Shown here one piece after another: positions 1 through 38,290 of a stretch of 64,000 nt of DNA. The notes under the pieces are model-generated. The model was given only the letters and a program-made list of their open reading frames with translations. It made no database searches and was not told the DNA's origin. This DNA is from Pseudovirgaria hyperparasitica (lineage: Eukaryota): NCBI GenBank assembly GCA_010093815.1, contig ML996568.1. One strand, written 5' to 3'. Made by a program: the position numbers and the translations under genes. Within the stretch, counting starts at the first letter, position 1. Every line of letters begins with the position of its first letter.

Positions 1-2371
1 TGTCAATTTGTGTTTTTATGACGAAGGTGACCTGACTCTCGAGAGCCTACGAACGATTACTCAGAACAGGATTCATGTATGAATTGACGCGTTACTACTT
101 ACCGTTTTCATCTTAGATCGAGCGTATGTGCTGGCACCATCATGGATGTACTCGAGATTGGAAAGAAGAACAAAACATGTCAAAAATATTTCATACCAAG
201 GCTTCGCTCCGGATCCGAATATCTTGCTCTTCAGTCCCTTTACGAGCTCAACTTGGAGCTCGTTAATGTACTTTAGGATAGCAACATCGAACTGATGTCC
301 CATAGCCTGAGGCAATGGTGTATCCATTCCTCGGTTGTATGACTCATAATCGGAAGGACTTGAGCTGATGTAGTCTACTCGTCGAAACTGCGTTGGGTCA
401 CCCCCAAAAACCGAGCCATACCCTTGAGACATGATCGCACCGCATTGTATACGGAGAGCCAGTGCGACAATCCTTGAACCTGACTTGTCTCTATAGCGGC
501 AAGCTTCAAGGAAAGTGAGGTGATTCAAAGGATCATCCCGGTATTGTGAAACGATCCATTTCTCAACGCTGGGTTGCGCAGCCTGAATCAGTCTACTCAT
601 ATCGTCTACGAGCTTCGAGGTATTGTAGATGGCAAATGGCTGTGTGGTGATTGGCTGCCGTCCACTGATGTGGTACGTAGTAGTATCCATTGCGAGCGTT
701 TTGTCGACATTATATTGACCATATTGTACAGTTACATGGTGTCCGTGGACTTGGACATTTCCAGGAAGAAACCAATGCACTTCCACGGTAGGTAGAGGCT
801 CGTCTACACGAATGAAATTATAGCGTATAAATTCAGCATTCTGTTGCCGAAACCTGGCATTGCCTACAACTTACGTTATTAACCTAGTATTGAGTCTCAC
901 ACAGATATGACTTACAATGCCTGATCATGCTATGATCCGCTAAATCTGCTCTTGTGCATGGCTCCAAAAAGCTACGAGCTGATCCAGCAACTTTAGTGCA
1001 TCGTTGGCATGGATTATTTCCATCGCACTACGAATATGTGAGTACATGCTCGAAGGATGCCTTCTACAGACGAAAAGTGACGACCAGCTGGGAGTCGAAC
1101 CAGAACTCTCTAATCACCATGAAAATCTATAAACATCTCTTAGGCAGGGAGGTCTTGTGACGTCTAGCATTGGAAAGAGGACGTTCGAGAGTAATACAAA
1201 TCTGACAAAAACATACTTACCCCAAGCTTATACATCTTGCAACGTAGACAGCGCCCGGTCTTTCGCATTTCAGCAGCTTTGGCTCGCCCTTCATCAGTCA
1301 ACTTGCCCTGTCTCTTCGACACCTTGCTCTTTGGTTGACGTTTTTTAAAGTGAGCACTACTGCGACTTGGCCCATTCTGATACCGAGGATCCCCTTTCAG
1401 TGGTTGAGGTTCAGCAGGTTCTTCGGCCTGCTCAACTTTAGAATCATGAGCTAGTCCCGCTTCGGCAGATATAGAAGGTGAGCGGTTTTCGTTGCTAGGT
1501 GGGCTATCGATTACAAGCTCCTCTGTTCCATATGGAGAATCATGTGGGGAGCTGATGTTCTGCCACGAGCTTGACGAAGGGACCGGTCCAGCGACAAGGG
1601 GCTGATAGTGGCTTTGCTGAATCCCGGTGATGGTTTGAAAGTTGATACCAGACTGAGTCTCGTCCATATTGAACGGAGCGTAAGGCTCGCTGTTGCCAAC
1701 GCTTACGAAGCTAGGCGTCATTGACGTATATGTGGAGCTGTAATTTTGCGGAGCGCCATGATCGACATGGCCTACCTCTGTCGTCATTGTGAGTCTGCGT
1801 AGGCTATCGTCAGGATTATCTCTAATCACACCATTAGACTGTCAACATACTGGCCTTGCCTATCGACTGTATGACTGTGAACAAGAAAAGCGCCATCACG
1901 GACATTATGTTGGTGATACCCATGAGTAACGGAATTGGAGCGAACCAGCAGTCTACTCTGTTGGCCATCACCAAAACAAAGGGTCGAGCTGGGTGAATGG
2001 TAGGCCTGTCTTTCGACCACGACTCTACTATCCCAAGCTACGGAGTCGAGAGGATCCCCAGAATGTGAAGGTTCTGAATTGCTTGATTCATGCCCTCTTA
2101 TGGGTAATGAAACAGAGCCGGTATAATCATGACCTCGAAGGTTCGCATCTGTTGCAGAGGTGTATGTTGCATCAGAAGTTACAGGTAGACTGGCTTCCCA
2201 CTCGTGCTCGCGTGTGGTGTAGGATGGCAAGAAGGCTTGACTAGGCGAGTATGAGGACACCGGTACCCATGTACCCATATAGGTACCGGAGTAGTTCCAC
2301 GAGCTGCCCTGTCCTTGTACCATGCTCCACGATATTTCCTCGTCCGGACTGGCTGCACCCTGATCGGTCAT
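1..2371 (-). CDS. Zn(II)2Cys6 (GAL4-type) fungal transcription factor-like protein, 3' end runs off the window
   Basis: Splicing GT-AG introns 1220-1028, 915-864 and 102-47 joins the ORF-track pieces and creates CLRCKMYKLG|CDGNNPCQRC...EPC (six Cys), preceded by a basic stretch (KKRQPKSKVSKRQGK). A first intron ending at 1822 (donor 1850 or 1919) is needed to join ORF 2371-1826 to ORF 1829-1164; the start codon is uncertain. Confidence 0.85.
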
Positions 2372-3236
2372 GACCGGAGAAATAGCGTTGAGGTAGCGTG
2401 CTGTGCCTGTTCATGCGAGACCCGCGTCTGTTATATCAGGAATTTTGGTCGTTGTGTGCTTGTCAGGTCGAAGATAAAATTATCTTTGAGCTGCACATCG
2501 AGGGCGCTGCCAGCGCTGCTGACTTTCTAGAACCCGTTGCCTTCTTCCCTCAGCCTCACTGAAGGTAAGCGACAGGCCTCTCGCACAATGTGTGCCACGG
2601 CCAAATACAGCCCACGGGTGTTAGAAAGGCTGCGCTTACGTCGAATCTGGCACAGTCACAGTACGCTCTGGCCAGAAAGTCGCCTAAAAAAGAATAGTAG
2701 GAGGAAATTCGGCGTGGACACTGCCTGTCCTGACTAATTATGTAGATGAGGTCTGAGGTAATATTGGCTCAGCTGTTCGAACAACTTACTTGATCGGTCA
2801 ACGAAGCCACAATGTCCAGATCGGGTAAGCACCTAGAGCCACGCCCCTCCTAGCGTCGTCCCACTGGGTACCTATATTCCACTACACTCATGTTCCATGC
2901 AATCTGATCGCTCTACTATGCGCCTGCTTTGTACACAGTAACGTTAGTGAGACGTTTATTTTCTTCGTCCCTGGTGTATAGGACTGCGCCCTATACTAAT
3001 CTTCATGCGACCTATCATCTGCTCCATCATGTCTTAACCCCGTCAGGAGGCTTTTTAGTACTGCCTTGAGCGATCAGGCTATGCAAATTATGCATCATAT
3101 ATAAGTTGAGGAGCTCGCCAGGGCATAGCTTTACGTATATTGGCGTACCTCCTCTCGTGGAATGATACTTAATACGGCTTCAACTTTGGGTTTCTGTTCG
3201 GATTTGTGAAGGCTTTCCTTTGTTTGCACCCTCGAG

Positions 3237-4341
3237 ATGGACAACATGAGCACTCCTTCCATGTTAGAGACGGCTGCCGCGAAAGGCAGCCAAGTCTGGG
3301 GCAAGGCTTCTACGTGCTCTCGTTTTTTGTGGCTTGTTGGAATGTCTGATTCTACTGCGATATGTCAGCCTTCTGTGAATCCTACTGCGCCACTGCTTCC
3401 CGCGCTTCCTCAAGACGTCTCTGCCGGGAAGATCAATCAAACGAAGGCTCAGATTCGGAAAGCTAACCTTCATGATCTGGATAGAATAGCCTTGGTCGCC
3501 ACTGCTGGCTTTTCGAATTCTGCCGTGTTCAAATACGAGCGACCCTATTATGGTCCCGCAACTATAATGGACACAATAAGTAGCTACAAGTGTTGGTTCT
3601 ACCAACAGATTACTGACGGTGATCATATCGTCCTTGTAATCGAGACAGGAGCAGTCGATCGTGAGCACAAGCACGAAAATCTTGCTGGCGATAGAGCTAT
3701 CGAAACCTACTACAATCAGCATCCAGGACACATACCTAGGATAAGGGAGACCGTCATCGCAGGTATCGCTTCAGTAAAAGTACCCAGATGTCACAACGCT
3801 CATAACAAATCGTCCGAGTACTTCACATGTGAGTGAAGTTACATCATGATCCGGCCAGCCGCTTACGATACCAAGCCACGATACCACCGATTAGGTTCAA
3901 AAGGCCGACCAAAAGCCTGAGAAGAGATGAGAGCCAGGAAAGTATACAGATATACAATGAGGTAACAAAGATCAAGAAAAGGTGAGACACTACTTGCACA
4001 TTTTGGCCCGTCAGAACGTAACCTAATCCATATCTAGCAAGATTGAAGGCATGATGAAGCTGGAGAGCCTGGTCGTCCATCCCACATATTGGAAAAACCG
4101 GTATGCCACAATGCTCGCCAAGTGGTGCTGTGATTTCGCCGATGCGTGCGACGAGGAGCTCGGGGTTTCTGCCGCACCCATGAGTCAGAACATATTGGAA
4201 AATCGCTTTCAGTTCGTGTCAGAGTCTGTCAGTTTAAATCGACTCACTCTAGAGGAGGACAAGGCGACGAGTCGAGATCGCAAAACCGTCGAACCTTTCG
4301 ACTTACATATTGGGATCCGGGCTCGACGTAATGACAGATGA
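3237..4341 (+). CDS. GNAT-family N-acetyltransferase-like protein
   Basis: Introns 3829-3875 (GTGAGT..AAG) and 3982-4037 (GTGAGA..CTAAT..TAG) join the 3237 and 4051 ORFs in frame. IRKANLHDLDRIALV, LESLVVHPTYWKNRYATMLAKW and LGVSAAPM resemble the fungal GNAT N-terminal strand, motif A and motif B. The start may be 3237 or a later ATG. Confidence 0.7.
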
Positions 4342-4465
4342 CCGGAATGAACGCTCCAGCTCTTTAAATAAATAAGGGTTAGGCCCGTTAGCTATCATTA
4401 TATCATCCCATCCACTAGACCGAATACTACAAAACCTATTGTAAGGATCGGATCAGGCGTCGTCG

Positions 4466-5490
4466 CTATCTGATGCCCGCCACTTTCACCTTGAGAAGAT
4501 TTTCTGCATTTTTATATCCAATCATCTCAAATTGCTCTTTGGTCACCATCCCACTACTCTCAAGATCTTCCATGAATTTAAGACCCCAGATATTCTGCGC
4601 GAATGGATAGTCGATGCTAAACAGGATCTTATCGATCTTGGTGTTCCGCAATATACATGCCATAGGACTCAAGCTCCAAACACCGCTTGTCGTGATCCAG
4701 ATGTTATTGTCGTAGACCTCTTGGAAGCTCCTCTTGCGATTGCCCCAGCGACTAGATATATAGGTGATGCGCTCTAGCTGAAAAGGTATCATCTCCCCCA
4801 TGTGTCCGATAATAAGCTTGAGCTTTGGGCACTTGTCGAAAAGGCCCGAAGCAAAAAGTTTCAACACGTGCAGTTGTGTGTCCGCGTGCCAGCCGAAGCC
4901 AGAACTACCTATGCTGAGTGCTGCCCCAGTGGAGAAGTTACCTTCGTAACGTGGAACCATATCTTCCGATGGCCAAGTCGGATGCAGATAGACCTAAATT
5001 CATCAGACTTCACTCAAGCACACACACAATATTAGCTCACAGGAACATCAAGCTCCTCTGCGGTTTTCCAGAACTTCAAGTACTCATCGCCTTCGTAATG
5101 TTGACCATTGACATGATTGTCAATTAACGTGCCCACAAAACCAAACTCTTTGACACATCTCCTTAGCTCACCCGCAGCACCTACTGGATCTGCCATTGGC
5201 AGCACTGCAAAGCCAGCGAAGCGATCCGGATTAGCTTGGACTGCTTCGTAAAGCTGCTTGTTTGCAGCGGTACACAGCGCAACGGTCGAAGCATCCGCTA
5301 TCGGGGCATGAGAAACAATCTGCATGGTGACACCGCCCTTATCCATCTCAGATATGCGCAGCGGTCCAATATCGTCCAATTTGTCTCGGACGCCGTCGAG
5401 CCATTTGAGCTGTTCCGAGTACATTCCTTCAGCGGTGTTAATCATCTCCTGGGAGAGGAAATGTTCTTCGAGAGCGATCAACGGTATCAT
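4466..5490 (-). CDS. Amidohydrolase-2 family metal-dependent non-oxidative decarboxylase (ACMSD / aromatic-acid decarboxylase-like)
   Basis: One 47-nt intron (5040-4994, GTGAGC..CTGAT..TAG). Motifs IALEEHF, VYLHP, IIGHMGEMIPF and ILFSIDYPF are typical of this family. The substrate cannot be assigned from sequence. Confidence 0.92.
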
Positions 5491-5669
5491 ATTGTAGAGC
5501 TTCAGTAGATTGCCGCAGTTGACAGGTTTCGTAATTAGCCTTTATATTGAAAGCTACAAAAGTTAGTTGGATAGTCTCGGAGTGAGATTTAGAGGGTGCC
5601 GGCCGGATCCGTTTATCCATAGTTACATGAGAAAGCTTGGCAGTCGGTGCACGCTCATGTCGCACGCAC

Positions 5670-7489: not shown

Positions 7490-8635
7490 ATAAAATAGTA
7501 AATAATAGATAATCCTTATCTTTATAAACCGCCCTATAAGTACTAACTATAGAGTAAGTTAGATATCTTATTATTAAACTAGGGGAGTAAGTTACGAAGC
7601 TCTAGAGAGAAAATATTAAACTTAGAAAAGCTAAAGAGGGCTTTAAAAGAAAAATCCTAGAACCTTTTAAAGGTAAGTAAAGCGAACTCTAAGGATTTCT
7701 AATATAGATTAGAATATATCTTTAGGCCTATTAAATTTAGAACCTAGAAGAATAAGTTATATTTACTACTAGACTACTAAAGGGAGATATACTTACTTAG
7801 TTTAAACTCTACTTAAGGGACTTTATAGAAAATAATCTATAGAATTAATAGAATAATACTACTAAGGTCTTTAAATATTTTAAAGAATTTAAGGAATATA
7901 TTAAGATAACCTTTAGAGATATAGATAAGTAAAGAATAGCTAAGAGATAGATCTAGTAAATAGTCTAGATAAAATCTATATCTAACTATACCTCTAAATT
8001 CTAATAAATCTCTAGTTAGTTAGAATAGAATAATAAACCTCTAATTCTCTAGTTCTATACCGGACTATATAATAATATTAAGAATAAAATCTCTAGAGAG
8101 AGAGACTATTCTACTAACCTCTAAGAGTATATTAAGCTTATAGTCTAGATTAATAACTAACTATATAAGAGATACTATAAGAAAAGAAGAGAAAAGATCT
8201 TTTAATCTATACTTAAATAAGATACTAGGAAGGGCTATATTAATAAGGCTCTAAACTATCTATATAAGGAATTCTATAATAGACCTATACTAATAGAACT
8301 TAGTACCTTATAGATAAAATATCTATCTAATAAAGAAAGGGAGTAACTAAAGAAGGAAGGTAAGTATCTCTACTATAAGGAAAAGAGATACTATACCTAT
8401 AAATACTCGAAAAATAAAAACAAGAAAAATTAGATTAAGGACCCGGTACTAAGATAAGGAAACTTTACTATAGAAAAAGAAGAAGTACCTTATATAGCTA
8501 TATTATAGACTAGTTATACTAATAACCTCTACTTTATATATAAGTTAAAAAAAGATAGTATAGATTAGTATCTAAAGAAAAGAAATATTTTAATAGCTAG
8601 TAAATAACCTCTATTACTCTATAAAAAATAGAACT
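7490..8635 (+). pseudogene. gag: RIPed gag of family A
   Basis: De-RIP reading gives KIPEPFEGKQSELQGFL (~7650), a CCHC knuckle (~8365-8405) and a WTGC-DD-C-H motif (~8505). Ends abruptly at the SINE tail; start approximate. Confidence 0.8.
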
Positions 8636-9577
8636 ATAATAATAATAATATTAGTGTTTAACTAGGAAGAACTATATATATAGCCATATATATGCTCCAT
8701 AGGCTCAGGCCTCCTCTAGTATTAGCTACTATATATATAAGAAAACCTCCTATAATTAGCTCCCTAACTAGACCCTATTACTAATCTAACCTAGCCTAGT
8801 CTAAGTCCTCGAATCCCATTAGGTAACAAACTTACTTCTTATCCTTATATTAGGCTTTTATTACTATATTAGTACCGGCTCTTAATAACGCCCTAACTAA
8901 CTATAGTAGGTATTACCTTTCTTATGATTAGGTAGGTCGCTAGGCTAGGCCTAGTCTTTTATTCCTATGTTACCGTGTTTTTTCCTATCTATAGGAATAT
9001 AGCTTTACGCCGGGTAGTAGTTATTAATTAAGATAACTAATACCGGAGGGGGTATATATCTAATAGGTCCATGCCTTAGTACTAACCCTAGCTAGGCCGA
9101 ATTCGGAAATTATTCTTTGGGGCTATATAATCGTCTATAGGTGGGCGGGATACTTAATTAGGTATTACCGTCTATTTTATAGTTACCGAGCCGGAGTAAG
9201 CACGAGCTAAGCCGGATTAGGGTAGATAAGGCCCCGGTATATAGTAAAAATTCTATGATTCGAGCTAAGCTAGTTATGGGTCTAGCCGCTCTAGGCGTCG
9301 CTCTACTACTTAAGGTAGCTTAGTAGATAGCTATATTAGGTAATTCTTATTATATAATAATAGTATAGTTATTTTTACATTACCTAATGGTCGCTTAGGA
9401 CTAAGTAGTTATATAATGGTAACCTTTACATCACGTGCTCGCTTAGCCCCGTATACTTTTTAATAGAGCGTGCGAAAACTAGTGTATAAAAAGGTGGCCG
9501 TTATAGGATTCGAACCCACGACGTTAGATAACAAACGCTTCTAGTAACGTAGTATACTACTACTACGCCACCTGGCT
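8636..9577 (-). mobile_element. tRNA-headed SINE, copy 1 (~940 bp)
   Basis: Reverse complement of 36657-37594. A box TGGCGTAGTAG, B box GGTTCGAATCC and (TTA)n tail. The two flanks do not form a TSD. Confidence 0.88.
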
Positions 9578-11615
9578 AATTATATTAGTATAAGTTTAAA
9601 TTAATTACTATAGAACTATCTCTAGAGGTTAGATTTAAAGGGTCTATATAGTTCTACTAAGGTCCTTTACTTAGAATACTTATTCTAAGTATCTAGTATA
9701 TTATTTAGAATACTAATATTCTATTTCTAATTACTTAGTATACTACTTAGAATATCTATTCTAAGTATCTATAATTAGCTCTCTCTATAGTTACCTATTT
9801 TAGCTTTAGATTATTATCTAAGGCTATCTATACTATTATAGATACCCCTTCTATATATTATACTATCTCTTATACTACTTATACTAGAGTCTATATATTC
9901 TTCTATAGTTATAACTAGTAATTTATTATATAATACCTCTTCTAAGGTACTTTGTCCTAAAGTACTTCTATAGTTACTTATAAGTAGATAGTTATTCTAA
10001 CTTTCTTTAGTAAGGAGCTCTTCTCTCTTTTCTTCTATTATATCTAGAGTTACGAAATTAGTTAAGTTTTCTAAGTCTAATCTAGTAAAATAGAGAGTTA
10101 CTTTATCTATCTTAATTAATTATAAAGGTAATAAAATACCTTTCCCTTACTTATTTTATAAGAAATATAGTTTAACTTATAGAGTCGTATTTATAAAGTC
10201 TAATAAGTATTTAGAGTATATTTATTAGGGTTATTTAGTAAGTAAGTATAGAATTAAGACTTTAAGCGAGTTATCTTATAAGTCTTCTTTCTTTTTATTA
10301 GGGCTAGTAAATAATATTTCTAGATAAGAAGGTTTATTCTAAGAAGACTTATCTTAAGCTAGAGAAAGAATATATAACTACTATCTAGCGAAAAGCTTAG
10401 TAGAACGCTTAGACTATCTTTATATATCTAGAGTATTTAGAGAAATAATAGAAGCTATTAGAGTATTATTAAAATAATATACTTTATTAGAATCTATTAG
10501 TAATAGATCTTAAGAAAGAGAAGAAGTAACTTAAATAATAATAGAGAGTTATTACTAAGAAGGTTCCGAATTCTCCCTTAGATTTTAATAATTCTTAGCT
10601 TAGTATAGAAGACTAGGCGAATCTAGATTTATTTAATAGAACTTCTATAATAGTTACTAGTAGTTCGTTAAATATTCTCTAGATTTCTAAGTATTTAATT
10701 TATATCTATAGTCTTTCTACTTAATTAGGTATTCTAGTATTTTATTACTAATTCTAGATTCTAGAATCTTTTTAACTTTAAATTCTTTATCTATAGCTTT
10801 AATATTAGTTTTAACTTTTATATTATATAGTACTAGCTCTAGTAACGAGATATAAAATACTAGGTATATTCTTATATTCTAAGGTAAAGATAGTTTATAA
10901 TTAACTTCTAAAATTTTTTATTTTATTTAGAAAGGTCTAATCTTCTTAAAGTCTAGTTTACTATTTAGTTATTATATCTTAATATTTTTTTTATACGAGG
11001 AATACTAGGTCTCCCCCCTTTAGAGATAGTCTCTTTATTCTTTTCTAATTTATATATCTTACTATTCTTTTATTTATAAAAGAAAGTTTAGTTTATAGCT
11101 CTAAGTATAGCTTATATAGTTATTCTACCTTAATCCTTACTTTTAGTACGGATTATTCTAGTTTATAATTATAGCTAGCTATAGGGTTAAATCTATAGCT
11201 TACGTAGAACGGTAAAGTTTTAGTTATTAAGGTTATTATACTATTATAGATAAATTAAGCTAGTAGTAGTAGTTCTATCTAATTATCTTATTATTTATTA
11301 ATATAGTATTATAGATATTATTCTAATATTCTATTTAGAATCTCCGTTTATCTATCCGTCTATAGATAATAGACTATTAATAGTTAGTAACTTATTCTAA
11401 GCTATTATACTAGGCTTTTCTAAAAGTTTAATATAAAGAGCTTATCTCTATTAGATATAATACTATTAGATAATCTATAGTTTACTATAACTACTTATAG
11501 AAATATATAGGCTATTTCTTCTATATCTATATTCTTCTAATATAGTATAAAGTAGACATACTTTGTAAGTTTATTAACTACTACTAGTATAGTATTATAC
11601 TATACTCGCGAAACT
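9578..11615 (-). mobile_element. 3' part of family A: integrase C-terminus, chromodomain, PPT and truncated 3' LTR (9930-9578)
   Basis: Minus-strand de-RIP motifs QTDG...LEQYL.CY.N..QDNW (~11280-11370), IGPF (~10935) and chromodomain EFEVEKIL..EYLIKWK.Y..NTW (~10650-10790). Interrupted at 11616 by LTR-C. Confidence 0.88.
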
Positions 11616-13189
11616 TATAAGAATAGAGTTATTAGATAGTAGTATAGTTAGATAGAATAATAGAGTATATTCTATTATAGAATAAATTACTACTAAACCC
11701 TTTTAGTAGGAATCTAAGAGTATATATATAAAGAGACGCCGATCTATCTAGTATATAACTATTTACTACCCTTTACGCTACCTTCTAACTATATTAGCTA
11801 AGATATATATAGATTAGGTTATACCTAAGACTAAGTTCTAATAATTATCCCCTTTCTTTAGAAAGCTACCCTTAGTAACCTAGATTATTATCTATCTCTA
11901 TATTTCTATTCTAAGTTCTATAAGACCTTAGTTATTCTTTATACTTTATCTTAGATATATATAGATACTTACTAATCTAAGATTTATATAAGTATTTTTC
12001 TAATAAACTAGATTTTATCTATCCTAAATTCTTATATAGATAGAATTATCTAATTAGGCCTAGTGTATCACGTAATATAATTAGATAAGCCTAGGTACTA
12101 TCTATATTAAAATCTTTTCTTAGAAATATTCCTTTCTTTAAAAAACTTCTTAACTCTTTATAGAGTTTTTTAGATTATTAGATATATTACCTAATTCTTA
12201 TAGATATAGATTTATATAGATTTACTATAATTTAGTATAATTTATATAATTTACTAATTTTTATACTATATTTAGCTAGTAATAATAATAATCTATAATA
12301 ATCTATATAAATTAGTAATAATTATAATATAGTTTTCTAAAATCTTAATACTTAGAAGTAATTAATACTAAAATAGATACCCTTAAATAATTCTTATCTA
12401 GTATATATTACTAATATATTAAAAGCTATTAATCTACTCTAACCTAGGCCGGTATAAGGATTATAGACGTAGGATAGTAGTCTAATAGGTCATAGAAGGA
12501 TTCGGGAATATATTTAAAAGGGTAGTCTACTCTCCTAACGAGGTTGATTCCTAAAGAGTAGGAATTAAGTATATGCGGCCTACTTATATAGTAGTCTCGC
12601 TTATTCTAGCTAACTTACCCTAGGTCTACCTATTACGGACCGTACTAGACTATAGTATTCTAGTTAAGTCCATCCTAGTATTAGCCCTAATAATATCCTT
12701 CTTCTTTTTATACTTCGCCCCGAAGTACTTAGCTATATATAAATCCGTAATTCTATAAGCATTATATTTATACGCGCATCTAATTAAATCTATATAACGT
12801 TATTAATAGTCTTTATATCGGTAAACTTAAGCTCTAGTTTACTTTTATTTATGCACGCGCTTATCCCTTACTTTATAGCTACTACCTTAGAGATAGCTCC
12901 GCGGGTTATATAACTACTATATTAACTAAGCTTATATTTAGTTCTCTTATTCTAAATTTTCTTCTCTAGTATATCCACCTTACTCTTAAGGTAAGTCGTT
13001 AATTCGTATACTATCTCCTTTAGTTTAGATCCGTTCGGGTCTAGAGTAGTCTATTTTTATTAGAGCTAGTCCTATATAATCCATTCGCGTTATTATAGTT
13101 ACTAATTTAGCTTCTTTAATCGCCTTTAAGGCTAAATAAGTATTCTTCTCTTAGATCTCTAGCTAACGTGTGTATATAGATATCTAATA

Positions 13190-14483
13190 CTAGTCCTATT
13201 TCTAAGTCTACCTCCTCCTCTCGCAAGACTTACTCTAAAGGGATTATCTCTACCCCGGCTATACTAGCTAAAAAATCCACTTATCGTAGTAGTATAAAGG
13301 CGCGCTCTAAGTTAGAGAAGAAGATAGCTAAGGCTACTACTACTATTATTACTAACGTGGCCACTAGTTACTCTAATCTAGGTAATTCTAGTACTAGTAT
13401 TACGGAAGAGATAGCTATAAAGCCTACCTATACCTACTCGCGCCGTCTATCTACTCTACCTCCTTTAGAGGATGAAGAAGATCTTATTATAGACGATAAT
13501 CGAGAGTTTACGCCTTCGCCACCTCGCTCTAAACGCCGTTTCTCTTTTTGGTCTAATATAGACTAACTTAGTCGCTCTAGGTCCTTTTAGGACCTTAATA
13601 TTCGCTCTAAACCTAGCCCTAGTAATAATAAGGCCTAGGTCGCTAAAGATACTAAACGTAGTCGTGGTTTACGCCATAGGAAAACGGCGAACTACGGTTT
13701 AATATGCTTTAAGTATATTAAGGCTTACGCTACCGGCTCTAAATATCTCTTCCGCTCTAACTCTAGTATTAGCTACTACTCTACTAACCGCGACGGGCCT
13801 ATACACCTAATCTTTAAGCTCCCTACCCGCTGCTACCGCTATACTATAACTAGTAAGACTTATCTATAGGTAAGTATAATAGGCTATCTTAATCTAGTAT
13901 AATCTAAAGTGGTCCGCGCTAATACATTCTTAGATTCCTATGCATATATAAGATATATATAACGACCTTCGCGTCCGCGAGACCCTCAGGGGTCCTTATA
14001 GCCATCTATCTACTATATAGAGAGAGTTTAGGGAGCGCTATAAGCTCTTTCTAGAGGTTATTAAAGTGTAAGTTATAAGTATATTAATTATTTTTAATAC
14101 CTATTAATTTTTCTAGCCGCCGCGAGATCCCTAGCGCCTAGGCTACCTATTCTAGAGAGTCTATCCTAGCTATAGAGGCCGTAGAGAGGATTTACTCTAT
14201 CCCTCTCTATCCGTCTCGCGCTACTAACGGATCTTATAAGAGGTCTACTATTTCTCCCTCTAAGTCGCCTTATAAGAGAGTATATATTCTATTCTAGATT
14301 ATTCTAGACCGTGTTAGCTAACTTTGGGTCTAGTCGCTCCGCTCTAGCGCTTAGTCGTCGTCTTACTAGACTCTAACTAAGCGCGTGGTTACTCTAGAGG
14401 ATAAGGTCTCTAATCTCTATCGCTCTATTACTTAGTTAGTTCGTTCGCTACGCTCTAAGAGTAATAATAAGATAGAGGAGTAG
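13190..14483 (+). pseudogene. Antisense two-intron passenger gene of D1, Zn-cluster-like Cys motif
   Basis: Introns 13870-13933 (GTAAGT..GCTAAT..TAG) and 14068-14116 (GTAAGT..TAG) keep one reading frame. ORF-track 13357-13566 is an in-frame remnant. Cys pattern at 13705-13863; the same structure is present in D2. Start approximate. Confidence 0.75.
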
Positions 14484-14749
14484 CTCTATAGCTCTGTTTG
14501 CTAGGGTTTCTATATAGTGTATATTAGCTCTATCTACCTAGTTTCTATCCGTTTTAGTCCTTTTTAGACCGTTTAGATACCTATCTACTAGTTTTCTAGT
14601 AATTTAATTCTTAACTTAATAATATTATATACGTTCTTATTTATTCTATAACTATTAAATTTTAGGTTCTAATTTCCTTTAAGTTACTTAAGTATAGGTA
14701 TCGTATATAAATTAGTTTATCTCTCTAAATTATATTAGAGTATCTAAAC

Positions 14750-14834
14750 TAGTGGCCTAGTGGTTATCGATTCGGGTACTCTAACCTTTTATATTATATA
14801 TTACGAGTTTAATTCCGTAGTAGGGTACCTTTTT
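14750..14834 (+). promoter_or_regulatory. tRNA-like Pol III A-box/B-box cassette with T-run inside D1
   Basis: TGGCCTAGTGG (14753-14763), GAGTTTAATTC (14805-14815; GTTCAATTCC in D2 at 36031), TTTTT (14830-14834). Confidence 0.6.
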
Positions 14835-14899
14835 AGTTTCTTAGTCCTATATTCTTCTCGTGTATAATAGTCTATATTAGTCTATTCTAGACTTCTCTA

Positions 14900-17800
14900 T
14901 ATTATTCTATTATAATGTATCGCGTCGCGTGCCTATAATAGTTATTTACGTTTTCTTCGCGTTTAGTAACCGTGCATCGCTTGAATTATAGGGCTGCCTT
15001 ATAGAGTTTTCCTAGTATGCGTTTGGGATTCGTGATTCGACACTTCGTTCTCTATGGTATCCTTCTTCTTTTTATAACGACCGCGACGTCGCTATACTTA
15101 TATTAATAATACGCTATTCTATATCTTTTGCTTATACGTAGCCATTATAGAACTTAAGATATATACCGCTAGTTTCTAGGTGTTCTCGTCCTTAGTATAG
15201 TCCTTCTAATAGATTCTATATTTCTAAATACCGTCTTTATCGATCCTATGTTTAATAATATGGTCTACTTCGAACACGTCTAGTCTATCTTAGAGTATAA
15301 TAGAGTGTAACTATACGTTCGTGCGGCCATACATGTTAGGTCGAAATCTTTCGAGTAGTAAGACGTGGAACACGTTATAGATTCTTATATCGCTTTCTAA
15401 GTCGAGCTCGTAGGCTCTTATACCGATATAACGTTTAATTCGAAAGGGACTAGCTATTTTATAATCGAGCTTCTTATTTACTCGTAACGTTCATATATTA
15501 TAAACATTAAGAAGGACCTCGTCGCTCTCCTCGTACGTCTAATCCTTAGCTAACCTATTATAGTACTTTGTATACGAGTCGTTTACTTATTAGATTATAG
15601 CGCGATAGTTACGTACGGTTTTAAAGATTTTAATTACTAATTTCTAAGCGTGGACGTTCACGTCTATTATTCGATTAAATTAGACCGTCTAAGGCTTAAA
15701 ACCTATCCTTAGACTACGTCCGAGGTTCGCCTAGAAAGGTATAATATCTATTATACTATAACGACTATTATTATATATAAACTCTACTATACTTAGTAGG
15801 GAGGCCTAGTTATCCTACTCGAAATTATAGAATGCGCGTAGGTAGGCCTCGAGCGTCTAGTTCTATTACTCTATCTAGCTATCCGTCTAAGAATAAAATA
15901 CTATAGATATATTTCTATTTATACTTACTATTTTATAGAATAACGTCTAGAATTTAGACGTGAAGGTACTTCCTCGGTCCGTAACGATCCTTTTTAGTAT
16001 ACCATGGACCTTAATAATCTCGTTCTAGAACACCTACGCTAGTTCTTTAGATATAATCGTCTTCTATACCGGGATATATCTAGATATCTTTATAAGTCTA
16101 TCCACGATAATAAGAATAGAATTATAACTTATTCTAAGTATCTCGCTTAGAGATAAGTTAACTATAAAATCTATAGTAACGTCTTTCTATATAAAGAGAG
16201 GGACTAAAAGAGGCTATAAATTCCTATATGGCTTATACCTAGGGGCCTTCGTTCTTTAATAAATCGGATAAGTAGCTATCTATTCTTCGACGTACTTAGA
16301 TATATCTTTCTAAAAATAGTACTAATGAATTAAGCTTAGGGTACGTATATACCTAAAGTATTCTACTAGGTTAGTATTATAGTATTAGCTAACTACGTTA
16401 AATCGCGCGTTACCCGTTAGTATATAGTACTTTCTATTATAGTAAAGTAAGCCGTCCACGAAGGCCTACTTATAGTCTACTTTAGTCTATAATAACCTAT
16501 CTTACTATATTTTACGTAACTTTAAAACTATCGGGTCTATCTTCTATAGATCTATAATTAACTAGGCGAGGTTAATTAGATATTCACGCTAGGTATTATC
16601 GCCCTTCCCGATAGCGCTAATAAACGGTCTACTAGGGACTTCGGTACCGCGTCTTTAGTTACCGGCTTCGGTCTTAGAGATTCGATTACCGGTATTAACG
16701 TTAGCATCTCGCTAATCGCCTAATAACTTAAAATCTAACCTCGTCCTTAAGAGTTAGGCCTATAGCTACTCTAGGACCCTATAGCTACTATAATCCTAGG
16801 CGCCTTCTTTATAGTTAGGTCTTCTTAATATTCTATTAGCTAGATTTATACTTCTAGGTTAATAATAGATTATAAAGTAAAAGTTTATAAGCTACTTAGT
16901 CTATTAGACCTATCGACGGTTTAAAACCGTTATGCTTATAAACCCCTTTAAGTTATAGTAATTAGTTAGTAACTTAACGTTATATATAGTACCTTTAAGA
17001 TAATGTCGCTACTATTTAAACGACTCTACTATTACTAGTAGCTCTTGGTTATAGATAGTATATCTAGTCTTAATATCGACTATTTTACGTGAGAAGAACG
17101 TAACTAGATACTATTAGACCTTTTTAGACTTAGTTAGTCTAGGCTAGAAGAGAATACCTAAGATTATAAATCCTAACGCGTTAGTTTTAACGCGGATAGA
17201 TTTAGTTAGATCGAAGTGCACTAGTAATAGAGTAGTTATAAATGCCTCTTTAATTTTCTCGAAGGATATTCTTTCGACCTTAGTTAATTTAATAGGTTAT
17301 AATTTAATATTATACTATTTCTATCCACTACGGACCGTAATAGACGAGTTAGTAGTAGTAGTACACGTATTAAGTAGTGCGGCTAAACGGGAGAAGTACT
17401 TAACGAATTTTCGGTAGTAATTAGCGAATCTAATAAAGATACGTATATCTTAAACCGATTTTAGTTTAGGCCAGTCTATGATAGTAGCGACTCTATCCCT
17501 TTCTATAGTTATACCTTAATTAGTAATAACGAAGCTAAGGAAGTTAATATGGTCCTAGTGGAACTCGCATTTAGATAGCTTAATATATAGCTTATATTTT
17601 TCTAGCCTATCTAGAACTACGCGTACGTGCTAGATATATTCTTCTTCGTTATTAGAGAAGATAAGGATGTTATTAAGGTATATAATGCACGTCATATCGA
17701 GTAGGCCTACTAGCGCGTTATTAATGTACGCTTAGAAGGTTCCTAGCGTATTAGTTAGTCTAAAAGGAACTACTATATACTCGAAGTGTCTATAACGGGT

Positions 17801-20181
17801 CCTAAACACCGTTTTCTACTTATCGCCCTTCTTAATATATAGGCGGTAGTAGGCGTCGCGTAGATCGAGCTTAGTAAAGATCTTTATATACCCTAGTCTA
17901 TTAATAGACTCGGAGATAAGAGGTAGTAGATAATGATTCTTTCGCGTGATATTATTTAGGCTATAGTAGTCGATATATAGACGGAGACTCCTATTCTTCT
18001 TCTTTATAAAGAGGATTAGAGCTCCGGCTAGAGATATACTAGGCCTAATCTATCCTCGTGTAAGGTTCTTTTCGATATATTCTTAGAGGACCTATAGCTC
18101 GGGTTCTAATAGAGGGTAGATAGGTCCGTATAGGGGTTATTAACCGTCTTTAAGGTTAATAGTAAGGTTAGTAGATTAGTATTAAGGTAATTCGGACGAG
18201 TCAATCGCTAACACGATATGTTAGTACATTTTATACTAATATAGTAGGTTTTTATCTACTTTAATACTAAGCTCTCTATTTTAAGTAAGTAAGAGGACGT
18301 AGATAGCGGAGATTACCTTTTCGTAGTTCTTCTAGAATTATTCGTCGTCGACTAGCTATACTAGGTTCTATTATAGTAGATATATACGCTAGCCAGCTGT
18401 TTTCTAGATGAAGTCTAGTTTCGGGTTATATTTTTCGAGCTATAGTATACTAAGGATCATATTAAAGGGACTATCTACTACGATAAAGGTTAAGTAGTAG
18501 GGTTTCTACTTCCCCCCGCTATCCTAGATACTATATTTAATAGTATAGGTACCCTATAATTTAATAGGACTATCGATGCTATAGAAGGTAGTATCTATTA
18601 GTACTTAAATGTTAACGTTAAGTTCTTATACTCGTTAAGTCGATATAATGTTAGTAGCTAAACTACTATCGAGTATTACGGTCTAATGTTATCTACGAGG
18701 GACCTTAATAGGTCTAGCCTATAGTTCGATATACTATTTAGCGGATTACCCCTCTATTATAGTCGCGCCTATAAGTCGCGAGGGTTTCTTATAGGCTATT
18801 AGTTTTTTATGTTCTATGCTAGATAGTTAGGCGCGATATATTCTAGCTACTAGCACTTATAGTATATAACTAGTTAGTTAGTTATATTAGCACTCGGTGG
18901 CTTCCCTAAATAGTACTTAGATACTATATAGCCTATTCTACTATAGGTATAGTAAGTGACTTTAGGTTATTTATACGAGTTAGTCCTCGCATCTTAATAT
19001 ATTAATTAGTAGGGAGATCCACGATACGATCCGCGTGGTTTTGAATTTAAGGCGTGGTAGTAGCCTTATAACGTCCCGCGAGATCTATTACTAAATCGGT
19101 TTTAGTTAGATAATTTTATATTAGATTAGATTATTAGGGATAGTCGTACACTAGCGCGGCGTTAATTATTTATTATATACTAGTATCGCTCCGCGAGGTT
19201 TATAAGAGCTTAGAGGTCTATAGGGATTATTATTATAAGGTCGAGACGGTTCTTTATATTTAGGGTAAGGGACCGTTTAAAGTCGTCGTACTATCGAATT
19301 ATACAATCTTCTTCGGCTTCTCTCTAGAGAGGCCGAAGGTATTTAAGGAGGTATAATGGTAACTAATTATCTCGTTATCGAGTCTCGAAGATATGGCCCT
19401 AGGCCTAGTTACGTCGTTTAGCTCTATCGCTAAAATATTAGAGGAGAAATTCGGTGAACGTGTCCTAGTTATAGATATCCTTAGAATATTTAATTCGGTA
19501 TACTATCTAACGTTCTAAAGGCGTTAGGTCGAGGTAGTTCTAGGCGAATCTAATTTTATCGCTATCGTTCGTAAATAGATAGAAGAATCGGCTATATTAG
19601 TAAGCCTATATATGGAAACTCTTTCTACTTTTACTATCGAAGTAAGGTGGTTTCTTAGGTCGGGGTAATTAGGATAGTAGTAGACTAGGATAGATTATTT
19701 TAGTTGGTATAGGTCCATATAAATATAGATTAGTCGTTACTAGAACTAAAGTATATAATATAGCTTTAAGTCTCGTAGTACGTTCTCGAGCTTCGTTAAG
19801 TTCGCGTAGTTATTACTCGAGTTAAATCTATTGTTACCTCTCTTCGTATAGTCTAGTATATATATCGTTATAAGGTGTAGTTAATATTAGGCGATTCTAA
19901 CGGATTAACTCGTTAACGTTAATAAGGTCTAGCCTTATATTAAGGTTAGGTCTAGTATAGTTCGAACTAGACCGAGATAGAGTATAATAGACTCTATCCT
20001 CGTATTCTATAATATCTTCTATAGTTATACGGAATGTTATGCGAGTTATTAGTACGATAGCCTATAAGGTATAGTTATTAGTAGGGGTAGTTATAGATAG
20101 ACTATTCTCCTCGTTTAGGTTAGGAGAAGGTCTACTATAAGAGGTGGTGCCACGAGTGTTATAACGAGTGGTTAGAGCCAT
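14900..20181 (-). pseudogene. pol: RIPed gag-pol of D1 (PR, RT, RNase H, IN, chromodomain)
   Basis: ATG at 20181; protease LDSG-like (~18670); RT YLDDILIF-like (~17670); RNase H TDA(S)GF-like (~17180); integrase VTDRGSTF (~15980); chromodomain WKDY.KDENTWE-like (~15190). End approximate. Confidence 0.92.
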
Positions 20182-21919
20182 TTCTATAAACTACCGTCGT
20201 GCTATATAAAGAGGAATTAAAATATAAGGATTATAGACATAGGATAGTAGTCTAATAGGTCATAGGAGGATTCGGGAATATATTTAAAAGGGTAGTCTAC
20301 TCTTCTAACGAGGTTAATTTCTAAAGAGTAGAAATTAAGTGTATACGGTCTACTTATATAGTAGTCTCGCTTATTCTAGCTAACTTACCCTAGATCCACC
20401 TGTCACGGACCGTACTAGACCATAGTATTCTAGTTAAGTCTATCCTAGTGTTAGCCCTAACAGCCGGGCTCTAATAATCTAGCTATATATTACTATAGTT
20501 ATCGCTTTCTATTATATACCGCTTATAGTAGTACTAAATCTATAATATATAGTACTTATATAACTAAGAAGTATTATTATTTATAGATATTTAAATAGGT
20601 TTAAAGAGCTTTACGTAGATTTACTTATATTAGTATAGATTATTATTAGATCTCTAGTAACCTCTACTAATAAGAAGTATAGTACTACTAATTATAACGC
20701 CTTAGAGAAGGCTTTCTATAATTTATATATCTATAGTAAGGAGTACGTCTAGAAGTATAATTCTAATATAATCTATAAAAATTTATTAGAATATACTATA
20801 GCTATTATTACTATAATTACTAGATAATATTATTTTTCTTAAATTATTATAGATTCTTACTAATATATATTAATTTCTATAATAGTACTAAGATCTCTAC
20901 TACTTTAGACTTCTTTCTCTATACTAGAGATATTAAAATTCCTAGAAATAGTTCTAGAGAAAAGGCTAAGGTTCCTTTCTTACGTATACTAAAGAGCTAT
21001 AAATTTAGAGAAGATAGCTCTAATCTAGAAGTTTCTATACTAAAGATATATAGTTCTATATGTAATGGATATGACTAAGGTATTACTATAATAGTAATTA
21101 AGATATATTATAATTTAACTTAGAGAGAGTAGAGATAAGCCCGTATAGTTATAGCTTTAAGTATAGTCTTAAGTAAGGTCACGTAATACCTCTATACTAG
21201 TCTCTATCTATCCCGGCTCTATTATATAATACTAGAGATAAGGTAAAGCCGAAGTCCATAATATACTCTTATTCTCTAGAATTATTCTAGGGACCGGCTT
21301 AGTATTTTATATAATAATAACCGGGCTCGGTTAGGTCTTAGGTTTATAGTCTTTATATTATACTATTGTAATAAGCCATTGCTACGTATATCCCTTTTAT
21401 AAATGGCTATATTCTTAGTATAGTAGTCGCGACGAACTTACAAGTATCTCTCCTAGGTATTATAAGTTCTCTTTAAACGTACGACTTCTTATTAGTTCTC
21501 TTTTACGATAGGACGGGTCTATATAATACTCTTAATTAATTTATTAATAGCTAAGTCTAATAATTAATACCCATAGAGGCCTATAAACGTAAGGAAAGGT
21601 TGAATTATTAAATATTAGTAATGGGGGAAGCGCGCTAAGCAGAATGACCAAGGAAAACGCCCTCCTTAAATATATAATAAGCTATATAATTAAGCTAGGG
21701 ATATATATATATAGGGCTATAGGAACGGCCTTCTATATATACCTCCCCGGCCTATAGAACTACTACCCTTAGTAGTATAGTAACCGTATAAGAAACCGTG
21801 TAAAGAACGCCTAAAAGAAAGACCTTAATATAAATAAAATGCGCCCCTAGTAAACCTTTCGGCGCGGGTAAACCTTAGCCCGGATTATTAGTTAAGGGCA
21901 GCCCTTAACTAATAATTAG

Positions 21920-24872
21920 GTAGGTTTTTAGGCGCCTAATCTTAGTACTTAAGATCGCGAGCCAGCTCCTAAAGAATTATATTACTTATCTTAGAGAGGT
22001 TAGATTCCTCCTTATCGGATAGTTCGTTAGGCCTCTCCTATCTATAGAAGTTCTCTTTAATGTTATCTAGGCCCGCGTTAGGCTCGAATTTCTTTAAATT
22101 AATTAGCCGCTTAGCGGCGCGCGCCTTATTAAATTCCTTCTAGAACGACCTATCCCTATAGACTAGCCTTTTCTACCTTACTATTTTCTTAAAGGTCTCC
22201 ACGAATACCCTCGAGCCCTCCTTAAACTAGGCGTCTATCTTAGCTTTAAGTTATTAAGGACTTATATTAAGCCACGTAGCTACCTCTTCTTTTACCTTCT
22301 AGCTATTCTATCTTTTATAGCTAACTAATACGTTACTAACGGCGTTAAAACTCGGGAGTTAAACTACGGCTAGAAAGGTAAAAGGAATCGCGCTATATTT
22401 ATTAGAAAATTCTAACGGAGACGTAGGTCCCGGAGTTAAATTCCTATAAGCTACTGCGAGTTATTCCTATATATCTATTTTAGGTACTTCCATTATTATA
22501 TGATTAGGGCCAATCGCGATATACTATAGAAGTATTATATATCTTCTACCCTTTATAGAACCCTAGGCGCCGTGTATTATTAGTAGGCTAGAGATATATA
22601 CTTTAAGGGACTAGTAGGGGACTAGGACGAAGGGACTAAATCGTTTCCTATCGTCCGTATTATAGATCTTATCGTTAATAGCTATAATTATACTATTTTA
22701 ATTAACCCCCTCGCGGAGCTTAGCCTTCGACTACTATTTATTTAAGAACTTATAGAAGCGGGGAATGATTATAGTATAGTCGTTACTTTATTCGTCGTCG
22801 AGACTAATACTCCCTTAGATTATATTAAACCCGTGTCTATCGCTAGAATCGAGGATTTGATTAATAGTATTATCGAGATACTTAAAACCCGTCTTATCGC
22901 CTCTATCCCAGGACTTCGCATAGTACGGGTACGAGATTAGATAGTAGTTAAGATTAGGCCGAAGAGCGATATAGGTGAGCTAGTAAAGTAGGTATTACCT
23001 AATAAACTATTAGATATAGGAGTGGTATATAGTTCGTAGCTAGCCGTAGTTCGATTTCTTATTAAACATACGCTGGTAGTACTTATATATATTAAATTCA
23101 TCCCTCGCGAGTTCTAGAATACTCTTATTAAGTATAGAGGTCGTCTTTTTAAGTAGCTCGAAGAGCCCTTTAATATTAATACTTCTAGTACGTTCCTACT
23201 CGTCGAAGAGTTATCTATCTATTCTACTATCCTCCTTCTAAATTATAAATGCGATACTAGTAAGGATAGTTTTAATATTAATAACTTACTTCGGGGTCTC
23301 TAGGGCCTAGTAACGATAGATACCTAATGCCTCTATCGGATAAGGTAGCCGCGCGTACTTCGCGAACTAGGTATAGTAGTTCTTATAAACTTTAAGGGCC
23401 CCCACGTTATCTCTAAACTTATATACTATTTTAAGTCTCGCTACTAGGTTTAAGTAGGACATACTAACGAGTATATTATTCTTTCTAGCCACGTCTTAGT
23501 AATACTTATAGTAGACTTTATACGGAATAGCCATGTTACCTATCTACGCTTTCTAGTGTACTAGTAGGGCTATTCTCTTAATACTCGTGAAATTCTTCTT
23601 TAATAATATAGCTACCTTAAAAGTCTTCGTTACTAAAGGCGCGTATTAATACTTCTTAGGCTTATCCTCTTCCTTAACCGATACTATTATCTTAGAGTAC
23701 GAACTAAGAATAACCGGGGATTATCGTATAGGCGCCCCTAGTAATTACTAAGGGCTAGTAGATAAGGCATATCCGCGAGTAGGTTTTATCGGCGTGGCTA
23801 TAATAGATACTAAAGACGTTCTTATATAGTCTAGTAAGGGACGTTTACTAGTAGTAGTAGGAGGAATACTTACTTTAAATAGACGACTAGCTTCGAAGAG
23901 ACGACGTACTACTAAACTAGAAGGCGTGCTTTATAGAGGGGACTTTACCACGGGCGTTACCTACGCTAGTTTTAGTAATAGTAAGGTCTAAGGCGGAGGC
24001 GATGCACTCATCTCTTTAATTTATAGATAGTATTCGACGGGCCTATAAACCATTCTACTTATCTATAATAACTATTAACTAGCGGGGATAATAAGTCCCG
24101 TCTTATTATAGAACGTTAGTTTATTTTATTAGCTAGGGTAGTTCGAGAGTTACTAGAGAGATAGACCGTCCTTATTACTATTACTAGCTAGGGCGGTATC
24201 GATATTAGAGCTCTAAAGATATACCTTAATTCTCCTTCCCTTCTATCCCTAGCCGATTCGGGACCATAGGGATACGTTTAACTAGTTCCTTACTCTCGCC
24301 CATGTCCGCACTTATAAGAGCGCTACTAGCTTTTCTATAAAGTTCTATGTTTACTAGAGCTATCCGAGAGCGGATTAGAGTAACTAGCCATCGTTATTAG
24401 AGAGGTCTTTTTACTAGTTTTATAGGATTATATTTTTAGCTTTTAGGATACGGGAGTTAGTATCTCTTCTATAATAAATTATCTCGTGGACTTCTTTCGG
24501 AATAGAGGAGTTAATCTTTACCTTACTATACTCTATTACGGCTTCTACTTCCTAGAAGAGGTTAACTATACTACTTAAGAGCTATTCTATAAGGCTAGTA
24601 ATATAAAGGAGATTATTAAACGTGTCTAGAATATAGTCCTATCGCTCTTACGGGTTCTAGATAGCGATAATTCGGTTAATAGTAGACTTATTTATTTCTA
24701 TAGCTTCTATAGCCTATCTATACGGAGTAGTAGATGGCCTTAATACTACGATAGCCGTCGATAGCCCTACTTTAGTACTTACGACTCTTAACTAGGACCG
24801 TATCTATCTTATTAGTGCTTAATAATCTTATAACTCTTTATAAGTAGGCGTTTTCTTCTTTAGCGGGGCTAT
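21920..24872 (-). pseudogene. Passenger ORF of F1, putative 2OG-Fe(II) dioxygenase (RIPed)
   Basis: Reads LISYPYYAKSWDRGDKTGFK(Y<H)LD... and IHGA (CAC intact at 22572-22574). Colinear with 45804-48760; stop position uncertain because of RIP. Confidence 0.7.
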
Positions 24873-25549
24873 TATTATTATTAGTTCTATTAGTAAGTTA
24901 CATTCTAAGAAGAGATAGTTTAAGTAAGGCGGAAGTAGAGGAGGAGATTTTATTAATTAAGAAGATATAGAGAGGTATAAGAGGGAAGAGTTATATACTA
25001 TCTTAAGTTCTCTTTTTATGCCTCCTCGAATGCCGGGTATATAGTAATTTTTATAAATGATCCTTACTAACGGCTATAGGCCCGTATACGTGTCGAATCT
25101 ATAAATAAATATATACTAGATATATAGGAAATCTATAAATGAATATATCTACCGGGTATATAGCGGAATCTATAAATAAATAGATACCGGGTATATTCTT
25201 ATCCTTATAAGACTTCCTATAAGTATCTTTTTCTCTTATACCTCCTCCTTCTTTTCTTTCTTATTAGTTTCTAATAGGGCCCGTTCTATAGTAACGAAAT
25301 AGGCCTTTAATAGATAGGCTTCGATTACACGACCGGTTTCAATATATAGTAGGTGGAATTTCGTGTAAACGCCATTATATCTTCTTTCGAGCATTACTTA
25401 CTTTAATAATAGGTTTTATTATTTTATAGTAATAATAGGATTTATTATCCTCTTTCGATAATAGAGTTTATTATTATAAGACTACTTTTATAAGTATCCC
25501 TTCTCTCCTTAAAAAAACTTCTATCCCCTAGAAGGAGATATCGATTCTA

Positions 25550-38265: not shown

Positions 38266-38290
38266 ATTTTAGAGGTTATACCCGGACTAT
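38266..38290 (+). promoter_or_regulatory. Primer-binding site of family F, probably tRNA-Gln
   Basis: The F1/F2 consensus T(G)GAGGTCGTACCCGGACT is complementary to ...CCGGGTACGACCT-CCA. This resembles fungal tRNA-Gln 3' ends as I recall them; not checked. Confidence 0.6.

Follow-up and report, generated by a model that had tools for sequence, protein, structure and literature searches.

Can a retrotransposon inactivated by repeat-induced point mutation (RIP) still betray an accessory gene that once ran opposite to its own gag and pol? The question is raised by a 64,000-nucleotide stretch of contig ML996568.1 of Pseudovirgaria hyperparasitica (assembly GCA_010093815.1), hereafter the window, which contains two copies of a long terminal repeat (LTR) retrotransposon family, here family D. 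The first copy, D1, is a full-length, RIP-inactivated Ty3/gypsy chromovirus of 8,010 bp on the minus strand (12453–20462), as delimited by self-comparison and Pfam. A first reading of this DNA (the original prediction) had placed a spliced gene at 13190–14483, between pol and the 3' LTR and opposite gag-pol, and had given its product an expanded Zn2Cys6-like motif. The location is borne out: D1 pol, on the minus strand, stops near 15095, the 3' LTR lies at 12453–12692, and in the 2.4-kb spacer that separates pol from the 3' LTR the frame is on the plus strand. We suggest that an open reading frame (ORF) in this spacer, at 13180–13869, is probably a formerly coding sequence, antisense to gag-pol.

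The ORF comprises 229 codons closed by TAG on the plus strand, corresponds to exon 1 of the original prediction, and was assessed by its stops, its periodicity and strand tests. It is present in both family D copies of the window: the second copy, D2, carries it at 34403–35092 (plus strand), 83% identical at the protein level, with differences that are almost all of RIP type. Each of the two copies has three stops among its 229 codons, against a background mean of 22.5 stops (sd 7.3) per 230 codons in 114,622 windows taken from the RIPed part. Four stops or fewer are found at four places only: the frame in D1, the frame in D2, and two sites where a run of N (56884–57263) produces an artefact. 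Over 13180–13869, the three plus frames contain 3, 13 and 42 stops and the three minus frames 10, 15 and 54. Codon-position periodicity is also strong at 13173–13412 (chi2 of 42–48, against a background 99th percentile of 26); it stays moderate to ~13890 and then drops to a chi2 of 2–8. Tandem Repeats Finder reported nothing able to mimic the periodicity of the ORF, and a tblastn search of the window with the ORF gave no paralogue besides D1 and D2. The claim of an antisense frame in both copies stands for this ORF; the predicted exons 2 and 3 are at background stop density.

To which strand does the openness belong? As a control, we took 90 pol windows in which the true frame is fixed by homology and counted stops per 150 codons. 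The best antisense frame had 9.70 stops and the true frame 9.72, the antisense frame being the more open in 48% of windows. Since antisense shadows are as open as true frames, stop counts alone give no strand in RIPed DNA. The open plus frame might then be the mere shadow of a third ORF on the sense strand downstream of pol, for example an env-like one with a hydrophobic segment. Consistent with this, shadows of true pol frames are on average equally open, the codon-aligned minus frame has 9–10 stops in 229 codons, which is within the range of true RIPed pol frames, and this minus frame does hold a hydrophobic stretch. We nevertheless regard a shadow as very unlikely, for three reasons. In none of the 90 pol windows did a shadow have one third or fewer of the stops of its true frame, whereas here a 3-stop plus frame faces a 10-stop minus frame. 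Leucine codons of the CTA/CTG/TTA/TTG type make up 75% of those in true RIPed pol frames and 10 of 15 in the plus frame, but only 3 of 20 in the codon-aligned minus frame, which would have to use CTT/CTC for the other 17, against 25% in true frames (P ~3e-8). Finally, when RIP-type differences between D1 and D2 are corrected, three of the four transversions within the ORF are synonymous in the plus frame (0, 0, 0, 1 and 0 in the other five frames) and speak for the plus frame and not for the minus frames, although this test weighs less for comprising four sites, three of them within the last 22 bases (a variable tail), and for comparing only two copies, of shared ancestry. On the stop-count calibration, the Leu-codon usage and the synonymous transversions together, the ORF is assigned to the plus strand, where the sequence evidence makes it quite likely to be real. 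As a point of method, stop counts in RIP-degraded DNA need a further strand test, such as Leu-codon usage.

A different alternative is that there was no gene, the frame being either a chance or compositional product of DNA rich in Ser and Thr codons, or a functionless fragment of a host gene or another element that was carried by the master copy. Several results weigh in that direction and against a coding ORF. No ATG survives, and both copies read ATA at 13180, a codon derivable from ATG by RIP. A codon model built from 3,975 in-frame RIPed pol codons scored the ORF at -0.04 bits per codon, the best of the six frames and not significant; this log-odds model was abandoned as uninformative, since even exon 1 was inseparable from background. 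A word-indexed homology search with stops as X produced 319 candidates, none at E<=0.01, and a D1+D2 profile had no match among 1.84 billion protein representatives. Pfam gave nothing at E<=10 for exons 1 and 3 of either copy or for exon 2 of D1, a test that RIP damage weakens. A PDB sequence search was without match, and the best ESM Atlas score for the stop-free first 128 residues was 0.75, which is chance level. The AlphaFold2 model, built on a two-row alignment, was poor (mean predicted local distance difference test, pLDDT, 36.8) and unusable. None of these searches returned a homologue of the putative product. The predicted product is an orphan, without detectable relative, and the ORF is harder to trust because it is both orphan and low-complexity. 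A more distant set of chromoviruses, described below, is also without such an ORF. Against the absence of a gene, however, this is the most open real frame of the 114,622 windows, its 3/13/42 frame asymmetry and its periodicity are far above background, tandem repeats are absent, and the frame has been kept in a family amplified to high copy number. We therefore consider it unlikely that there was no gene here.

Four DNA sequencing runs were compared; the amplification of family D is apparent in two, in which it is highly repeated. Its variants in contigs from these runs are almost all of RIP type (among the 40 listed of 112 variant places), and the ORF region shows high contig depth, at which individual copies are not reconstructable. 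One contig, from DNA run X2, lacks 74 bases at 14381–14456, a deletion variant of some D copy whose length is not a multiple of three.

What kind of element carried the ORF? The two LTRs of D1 (3' LTR at 12453–12692; 5' LTR at 20223–20462, beginning TG on the minus strand) are 238–240 bp long, with 93% identity between 12453–12692 and 20223–20460. D1 is flanked by a 5-bp target-site duplication, GCCGG (12448–12452 and 20463–20467), and sits within another repeat that is continuous at 54992–56421 by self-comparison; the matches of the two D1 flanks overlap there by 5 bp (55824–55828). A purine-rich minus-strand tract at ~12697–12712, just inside the 3' LTR, is by eye a putative polypurine tract. 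The D1 pol (15092–18784, minus strand) extends from protease to chromodomain with many RIP stops. With stops as X, Pfam matched RVT_1 (1.7e-18), RT_RNaseH_2, RT_RNaseH and SH3_Tf2-1, all in one of the six frames, on the minus strand. The pol translation has 108 homologues at E<=1e-10, the best with 35% identity over 96% of the query; an integrase (PF00665) and a chromodomain (PF00385) are present in the majority. Because of these Pfam matches and of the integrase- and chromodomain-bearing homologues, family D is placed among the Ty3/gypsy chromoviruses with gag-pol on the minus strand. It has the reverse transcriptase (RT), the RNase H, the integrase with SH3-like C-terminus, the chromodomain, the LTRs and the target-site duplication of such an element. 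The second copy is less compact: D2 consists of three pieces (33676–36646, 37595–37894 and 49300–54057), between which a 0.95-kb repeat and an 11.4-kb LTR element have come to lie.

Un-RIPed, if more distant, elements for comparison came from metagenome loci related to the best pol homologue. We took 80 loci (1.33 Mb) and examined the 26 with long flanks. LTR pairs were found in 21 of the 26; 20 of these are compact elements of 6.19–6.36 kb, and one element of 11.9 kb looks nested. The 20 compact chromoviruses have just 282–408 bp between pol and LTR and no conserved extra ORF. A tblastn search with the D ORF against all 80 loci gave no match (best E 0.74). Because these compact relatives are without the ORF, the extra gene, if such it was, is specific to the D lineage.

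Does the frame continue beyond 13869? The original prediction had two canonical introns in both copies. In D1 they can be found: putative intron 1 (13870–13933, 64 nt) reads GTAAGT...CTAAT...TAG and putative intron 2 (14068–14116, 49 nt) GTAAGT...TAG, both on the plus strand, with donors GTAAGT at 13870 and 14068 and acceptors YAG at 13933 and 14116. Both spans have GT...AG borders, a branch-like YTRAY and a fitting length, fungal introns being about 50–70 nt long. In D2, in contrast, the second donor is ATAAGT instead of GT, a RIP-type change, so that the claim is true of D1 in full and of D2 in part. Together with the ORF these introns would define a three-exon antisense gene (13180–13869, 13934–14067 and 14117–14483), its introns kept through retrotransposition as antisense to the genomic RNA. 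That introns in this orientation survive retrotransposition is well established, and antisense-intron retrotransposition reporters are built on it.

The evidence on splicing is divided. At the first donor, GTAAGT begins on the base after the ORF-closing TAG, a rare arrangement: GTAAGT comes next after 9 of the 11,358 stop codons in RIPed DNA, two of the nine being the D copies. Likewise, TAGGTAAGT occurs three times in 116 kb of RIPed strand, twice in D1/D2. In both copies CTAAT stands 11 nt ahead of the intron 1 acceptor. Intron 1 holds four D1/D2 transversions. Intron 2 is a local peak of D1/D2 divergence, since its 49 of 404 nt contain 9 of the 26 local transversions and the one true internal indel (Poisson P ~0.002 within the divergent segment), and there are no transversions in the 47 nt before and the 45 nt after it. 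On the other hand, intron-like strings are common in such DNA. GTAAGT alone has a frequency of 0.63 per kb per strand in RIPed DNA, and GTAAGT..YTAAY..YAG was counted 30 times over 116 kb of RIPed strand, so that two in 1.3 kb have a P of ~0.05. Downstream of the ORF, periodicity at 13890–14490 is under the background 95th percentile, and the stop densities of putative exons 2 and 3 are no different from those of adjacent non-coding DNA.

Neither downstream exon resolves the matter. Putative exon 2 (13934–14067, plus strand, 44 codons plus 2 nt; 2, 1 and 5 stops in the plus frames) is without independent support, and one of its six transversions is synonymous. Putative exon 3 (14117–14483, plus strand, 122 codons in frame 14118) is ambiguous. 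Its plus frames have 8, 8 and 15 stops, so that the model frame is tied with another, and its minus frames 7, 14 and 20. Its halves have stops at 2 of 61 and 6 of 61 codons, the second being at background level, and two of its four transversions are synonymous in the model frame. Because true pol frames contain 6.5% stops on average and exon 3 has 7%, it is neither supported nor excluded as coding. Moreover, the chosen end at 14483 is arbitrary, as it is one of eight in-frame TAG/TAA codons. The comparison of exons and introns by D1/D2 transversions that the original prediction had proposed thus comes out in its favour for the ORF (three of four synonymous), for exon 3 (two of four) and for the enrichment in intron 2, but not for exon 2. 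Taken together, the sequence features leave the three-exon gene possible but somewhat doubtful. The looser proposition, that the ORF frame runs on through one or two short antisense introns (13870–13933, 14068–14116), fares a little better, not far short of a coin toss. If real, the introns would in themselves prove that the host RNA polymerase II machinery transcribed the antisense strand. A third plus-strand GTAAGT is present at D1 12991, 190 bp upstream of the ORF, and also in D2 at 34214; it could mark an intron in the 5' untranslated region or be due to chance.

The region of the putative introns is unusual in another respect. Non-RIP differences between D1 and D2 are concentrated in the segment 13848–14251, to which 26 of the 35 transversions of 12693–15200 belong. 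Across the whole element, transversions are almost absent from the LTRs, gag, 12453–13850 and 14253–15052, reach ~1.6% in pol and rise to 6% at 13853–14252. Contigs from other genomic copies also diverge from D1 after 13844. This is most simply explained if D1 and D2 are mosaics that arose by recombination among sublineages, and 13848–14251 would then be an old, weakly constrained piece. Such a segment is compatible with introns and a short exon, and also with a 3' untranslated spacer following a single-exon ORF.

What protein could the ORF have encoded? Ser, Arg, Thr and Lys predominate in the translation, whose N-terminal part is rich in Lys and Arg and which also contains an acidic patch and runs of Ser/Arg. 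The K/R/A-rich N-terminus of the original prediction is thus roughly right as to Lys and Arg, but the commonest residues are Ser and Thr. By composition the predicted product is a basic disordered protein. The sole moderately confident part of the AlphaFold2 model is a helix at residues 26–67.

The proposed Zn2Cys6-like motif, read as C-x2-C-x19/20-C-x17/18-C-x2-C-x6-C, cannot be upheld. The Cys codons on which it was founded are present as described, TGC at 13705 and 13831 in D1 and TGT at 35084 in D2, and they account for three of the six positions. The other three are TAT/TAC in both copies and had been read as RIPed Cys. They are indeed derivable from Cys, but not from Cys only. Many of the differences between D1 and D2 (e.g., 13150–14520 versus 34373–35745) are paired CG versus TA dinucleotides, and therefore CpG as well as CpA has been mutated. 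A TAY codon may consequently come from CGY (Arg), besides TGY (Cys) or CAY (His), or be an original TAY (Tyr), so that reading Tyr as Cys is one option of four. Five Tyr codons are resolved as former Arg by the D1/D2 comparison, one of them directly after Cys 13831, where most genomic copies read CG for the TA of D1. More generally, Tyr codons in RIPed DNA are not readable back as Cys.

The spacing argues in the same direction. The Zn2Cys6 motif is C-x2-C-x6-C-x5-12-C-x2-C-x6-8-C, so that the spacers of 19/20 and 17/18 residues in the ORF stand against 6 and 5–12, far outside the motif. Six residues past the second motif position, where the third Cys is expected, the codon is GGC (Gly) in D1 and AGC (Ser) in D2, neither of which RIP can derive from Cys. 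The pattern is at residues 176–228 rather than N-terminal, and there is no match to Zn_clus (PF00172) at E<=10. In its favour are the three surviving Cys codons, the Tyr codons that stand two residues beyond the first and the second of these and could be RIPed Cys, and the last three positions, which match C-x2-C-x6-C. Supposing the Tyr to have been Cys, the C-terminal C-x2-(Tyr)-x6-C would resemble the motif's second half, but neither the linker nor the first half agrees with it, a hidden Markov model match was not obtained, and the domain is not N-terminal. On spacing, the Gly/Ser codons, three Cys codons of six and the missing PF00172 match, Zn2Cys6 identity was rejected; a fungal binuclear cluster DNA-binding protein with expanded loops is hardly credible. 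A generic CX2C...CX2C-x6-C zinc site may have existed, as an unsupported possibility.

Are genes in this arrangement known from other elements? Antisense accessory ORFs between pol and the 3' LTR (aORF-3R) are described from plants in excerpts of PMC7264820 and PMC11963269: maize Grande gene23, rice RIRE2, Silene Retand (TRP28) and Phaseolus PvRetro13. According to the same excerpts, the plant elements belong mostly to non-chromovirus Tat/Retand lineages, with spacers of 2.9–6.6 kb, and expression has been shown for gene23; antisense retroviral genes are mentioned beside accessory ORFs. The fungal case is brtn of the Boty elements of Botrytis, an antisense accessory gene between pol and the 3' LTR (excerpts of PMC7264820, PMC8365987, PMC4227169 and PMC5987419), which is the only fungal example named in the literature that we searched. 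A nuclear or regulatory role has been proposed for antisense accessory ORFs, their function being presented as not established in the excerpts of these five sources (PMC7264820, PMC11963269, PMC8365987, PMC4227169, PMC5987419). Our search for literature on Pseudovirgaria and retrotransposons found nothing related.

The D ORF lies between pol and the 3' LTR on the opposite strand, and in both respects it is placed like an aORF-3R. It further shares with the plant ORFs a long pol-to-LTR spacer, the want of homologues that many of them show, and a basic, plausibly nuclear or nucleic-acid-binding protein. It differs in that Pfam finds no TRP28 or SMC domain, D is a chromovirus, and its spacer is 2.4 kb rather than 2.9–6.6 kb. 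Boty, too, is a Ty3/gypsy element of a fungus that has a chromodomain, and its additional gene lies opposite gag-pol in the stretch from pol to the 3' LTR, with a product of unknown function; the host is, however, a member of the Leotiomycetes, against the Dothideomycetes for D, and D is known only as RIP-dead copies. The D ORF had no match in the 1.84-billion-protein library, in which BRTN is presumably included, with a RIP-damaged query and no direct comparison to BRTN. A further parallel is HTLV-1 HBZ, an antisense retroviral gene whose transcript arises from the 3' LTR and has a spliced isoform, and whose product is a basic leucine zipper (bZIP) protein. Like HBZ, the D ORF is antisense at the 3' end of a retroelement and may have possessed an intron, kept as antisense to the genomic RNA. 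The D ORF product is, however, without similarity to the bZIP protein of this animal retrovirus, and splicing in D is putative. As far as sequence comparison can detect, the family D ORF is not related to any known antisense accessory ORF.

We therefore propose the following, in conditional terms. Before its inactivation by RIP, family D would have had an accessory gene opposite gag-pol, located in the spacer from pol to the 3' LTR. The gene may have been transcribed from a promoter of its own, situated in the ~490 bp adjoining the 3' LTR or inside the 3' LTR, and its transcription would have been convergent with the element's genomic RNA. The product would have been basic, rich in Ser, Thr, Arg and Lys and largely disordered, with a Lys/Arg-rich helix at about residues 26–67, an acidic patch and Cys in its C-terminal part. 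To go by Boty brtn and the plant antisense accessory ORFs, it may have been a nuclear protein that acted on nucleic acid or on the expression of the element itself; alternatively, the antisense RNA itself could have been the regulator. The role offered by the original prediction, that of a DNA-binding regulator or anti-silencing factor, is speculative. The most specific version of this scheme appears improbable: a spliced, lineage-specific antisense gene of a Dothideomycete chromovirus, encoding a basic nuclear protein with a zinc-ribbon-like (not Zn2Cys6) CX2C...CX2C-x6-C module, which regulated the transcription of the element or countered host silencing, as a fungal functional analogue of HBZ or gene23. 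Accessory genes of LTR retrotransposons are poorly understood, and a second, unrelated fungal antisense accessory gene in another class would suggest repeated origin in chromoviruses.

The surroundings of family D are those of a RIPed repeat tract. G+C content is 45–51% over bases 1–5500 of the window and 23–41% across the remainder. The AT-rich part bears a strong RIP signature, given its TpA/ApT of 1.72 and (CpA+TpG)/(ApC+GpT) of 0.17, against 0.77 and 1.22 in the GC-rich flank. It consists of nested repeats, as revealed by self-comparison of the window. Among these is an LTR element of 11.4 kb with LTRs of ~375 bp, present in two inverted copies (21365–32790 and 37892–49307) that are 92% identical; the second is inserted in D2. 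In the first, the RT match is at 27181–28485 (minus strand), separated by ~5.4 kb from the 3' LTR. A plus frame of this element at 26149–26838, with 5 stops in 230 codons, was considered as a second antisense ORF and dropped as a likely shadow frame: to judge by its position just downstream of the RT match, it is probably opposite the integrase part of the element. A 0.96-kb repeat, which may be a solo LTR of another family, also occurs in two inverted copies (8635–9594 and 36641–37599; 91% identical). In D2 it breaks the element close to where pol ends; D1 does not have it.

A distant D-like element has its pol at ~57265–60507 (minus strand) and is ~65% identical to D1 in patches. Its pol end is hidden by the N-run at 56884–57263, and with scant space left ahead of the next repeat it is unusable for comparison. 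This N-run, of 380, gives spurious open frames on either strand whenever stops are counted.

The GC-rich flank contains intact genes at 73–2371 and 4466–5490 of the window, both on the minus strand. One is Ser/Pro-rich, and Pfam gave no match when its ORFs were queried singly; its ORF at 1164–1829 has a C-x2-C-containing stretch at the end. The other is an Amidohydro_2 gene of two exons (Pfam 2.3e-17), and a 164-residue exon in this flank is 100% identical to amidohydrolase 2 (NCBI name) of the Dothideomycete Pseudovirgaria hyperparasitica.

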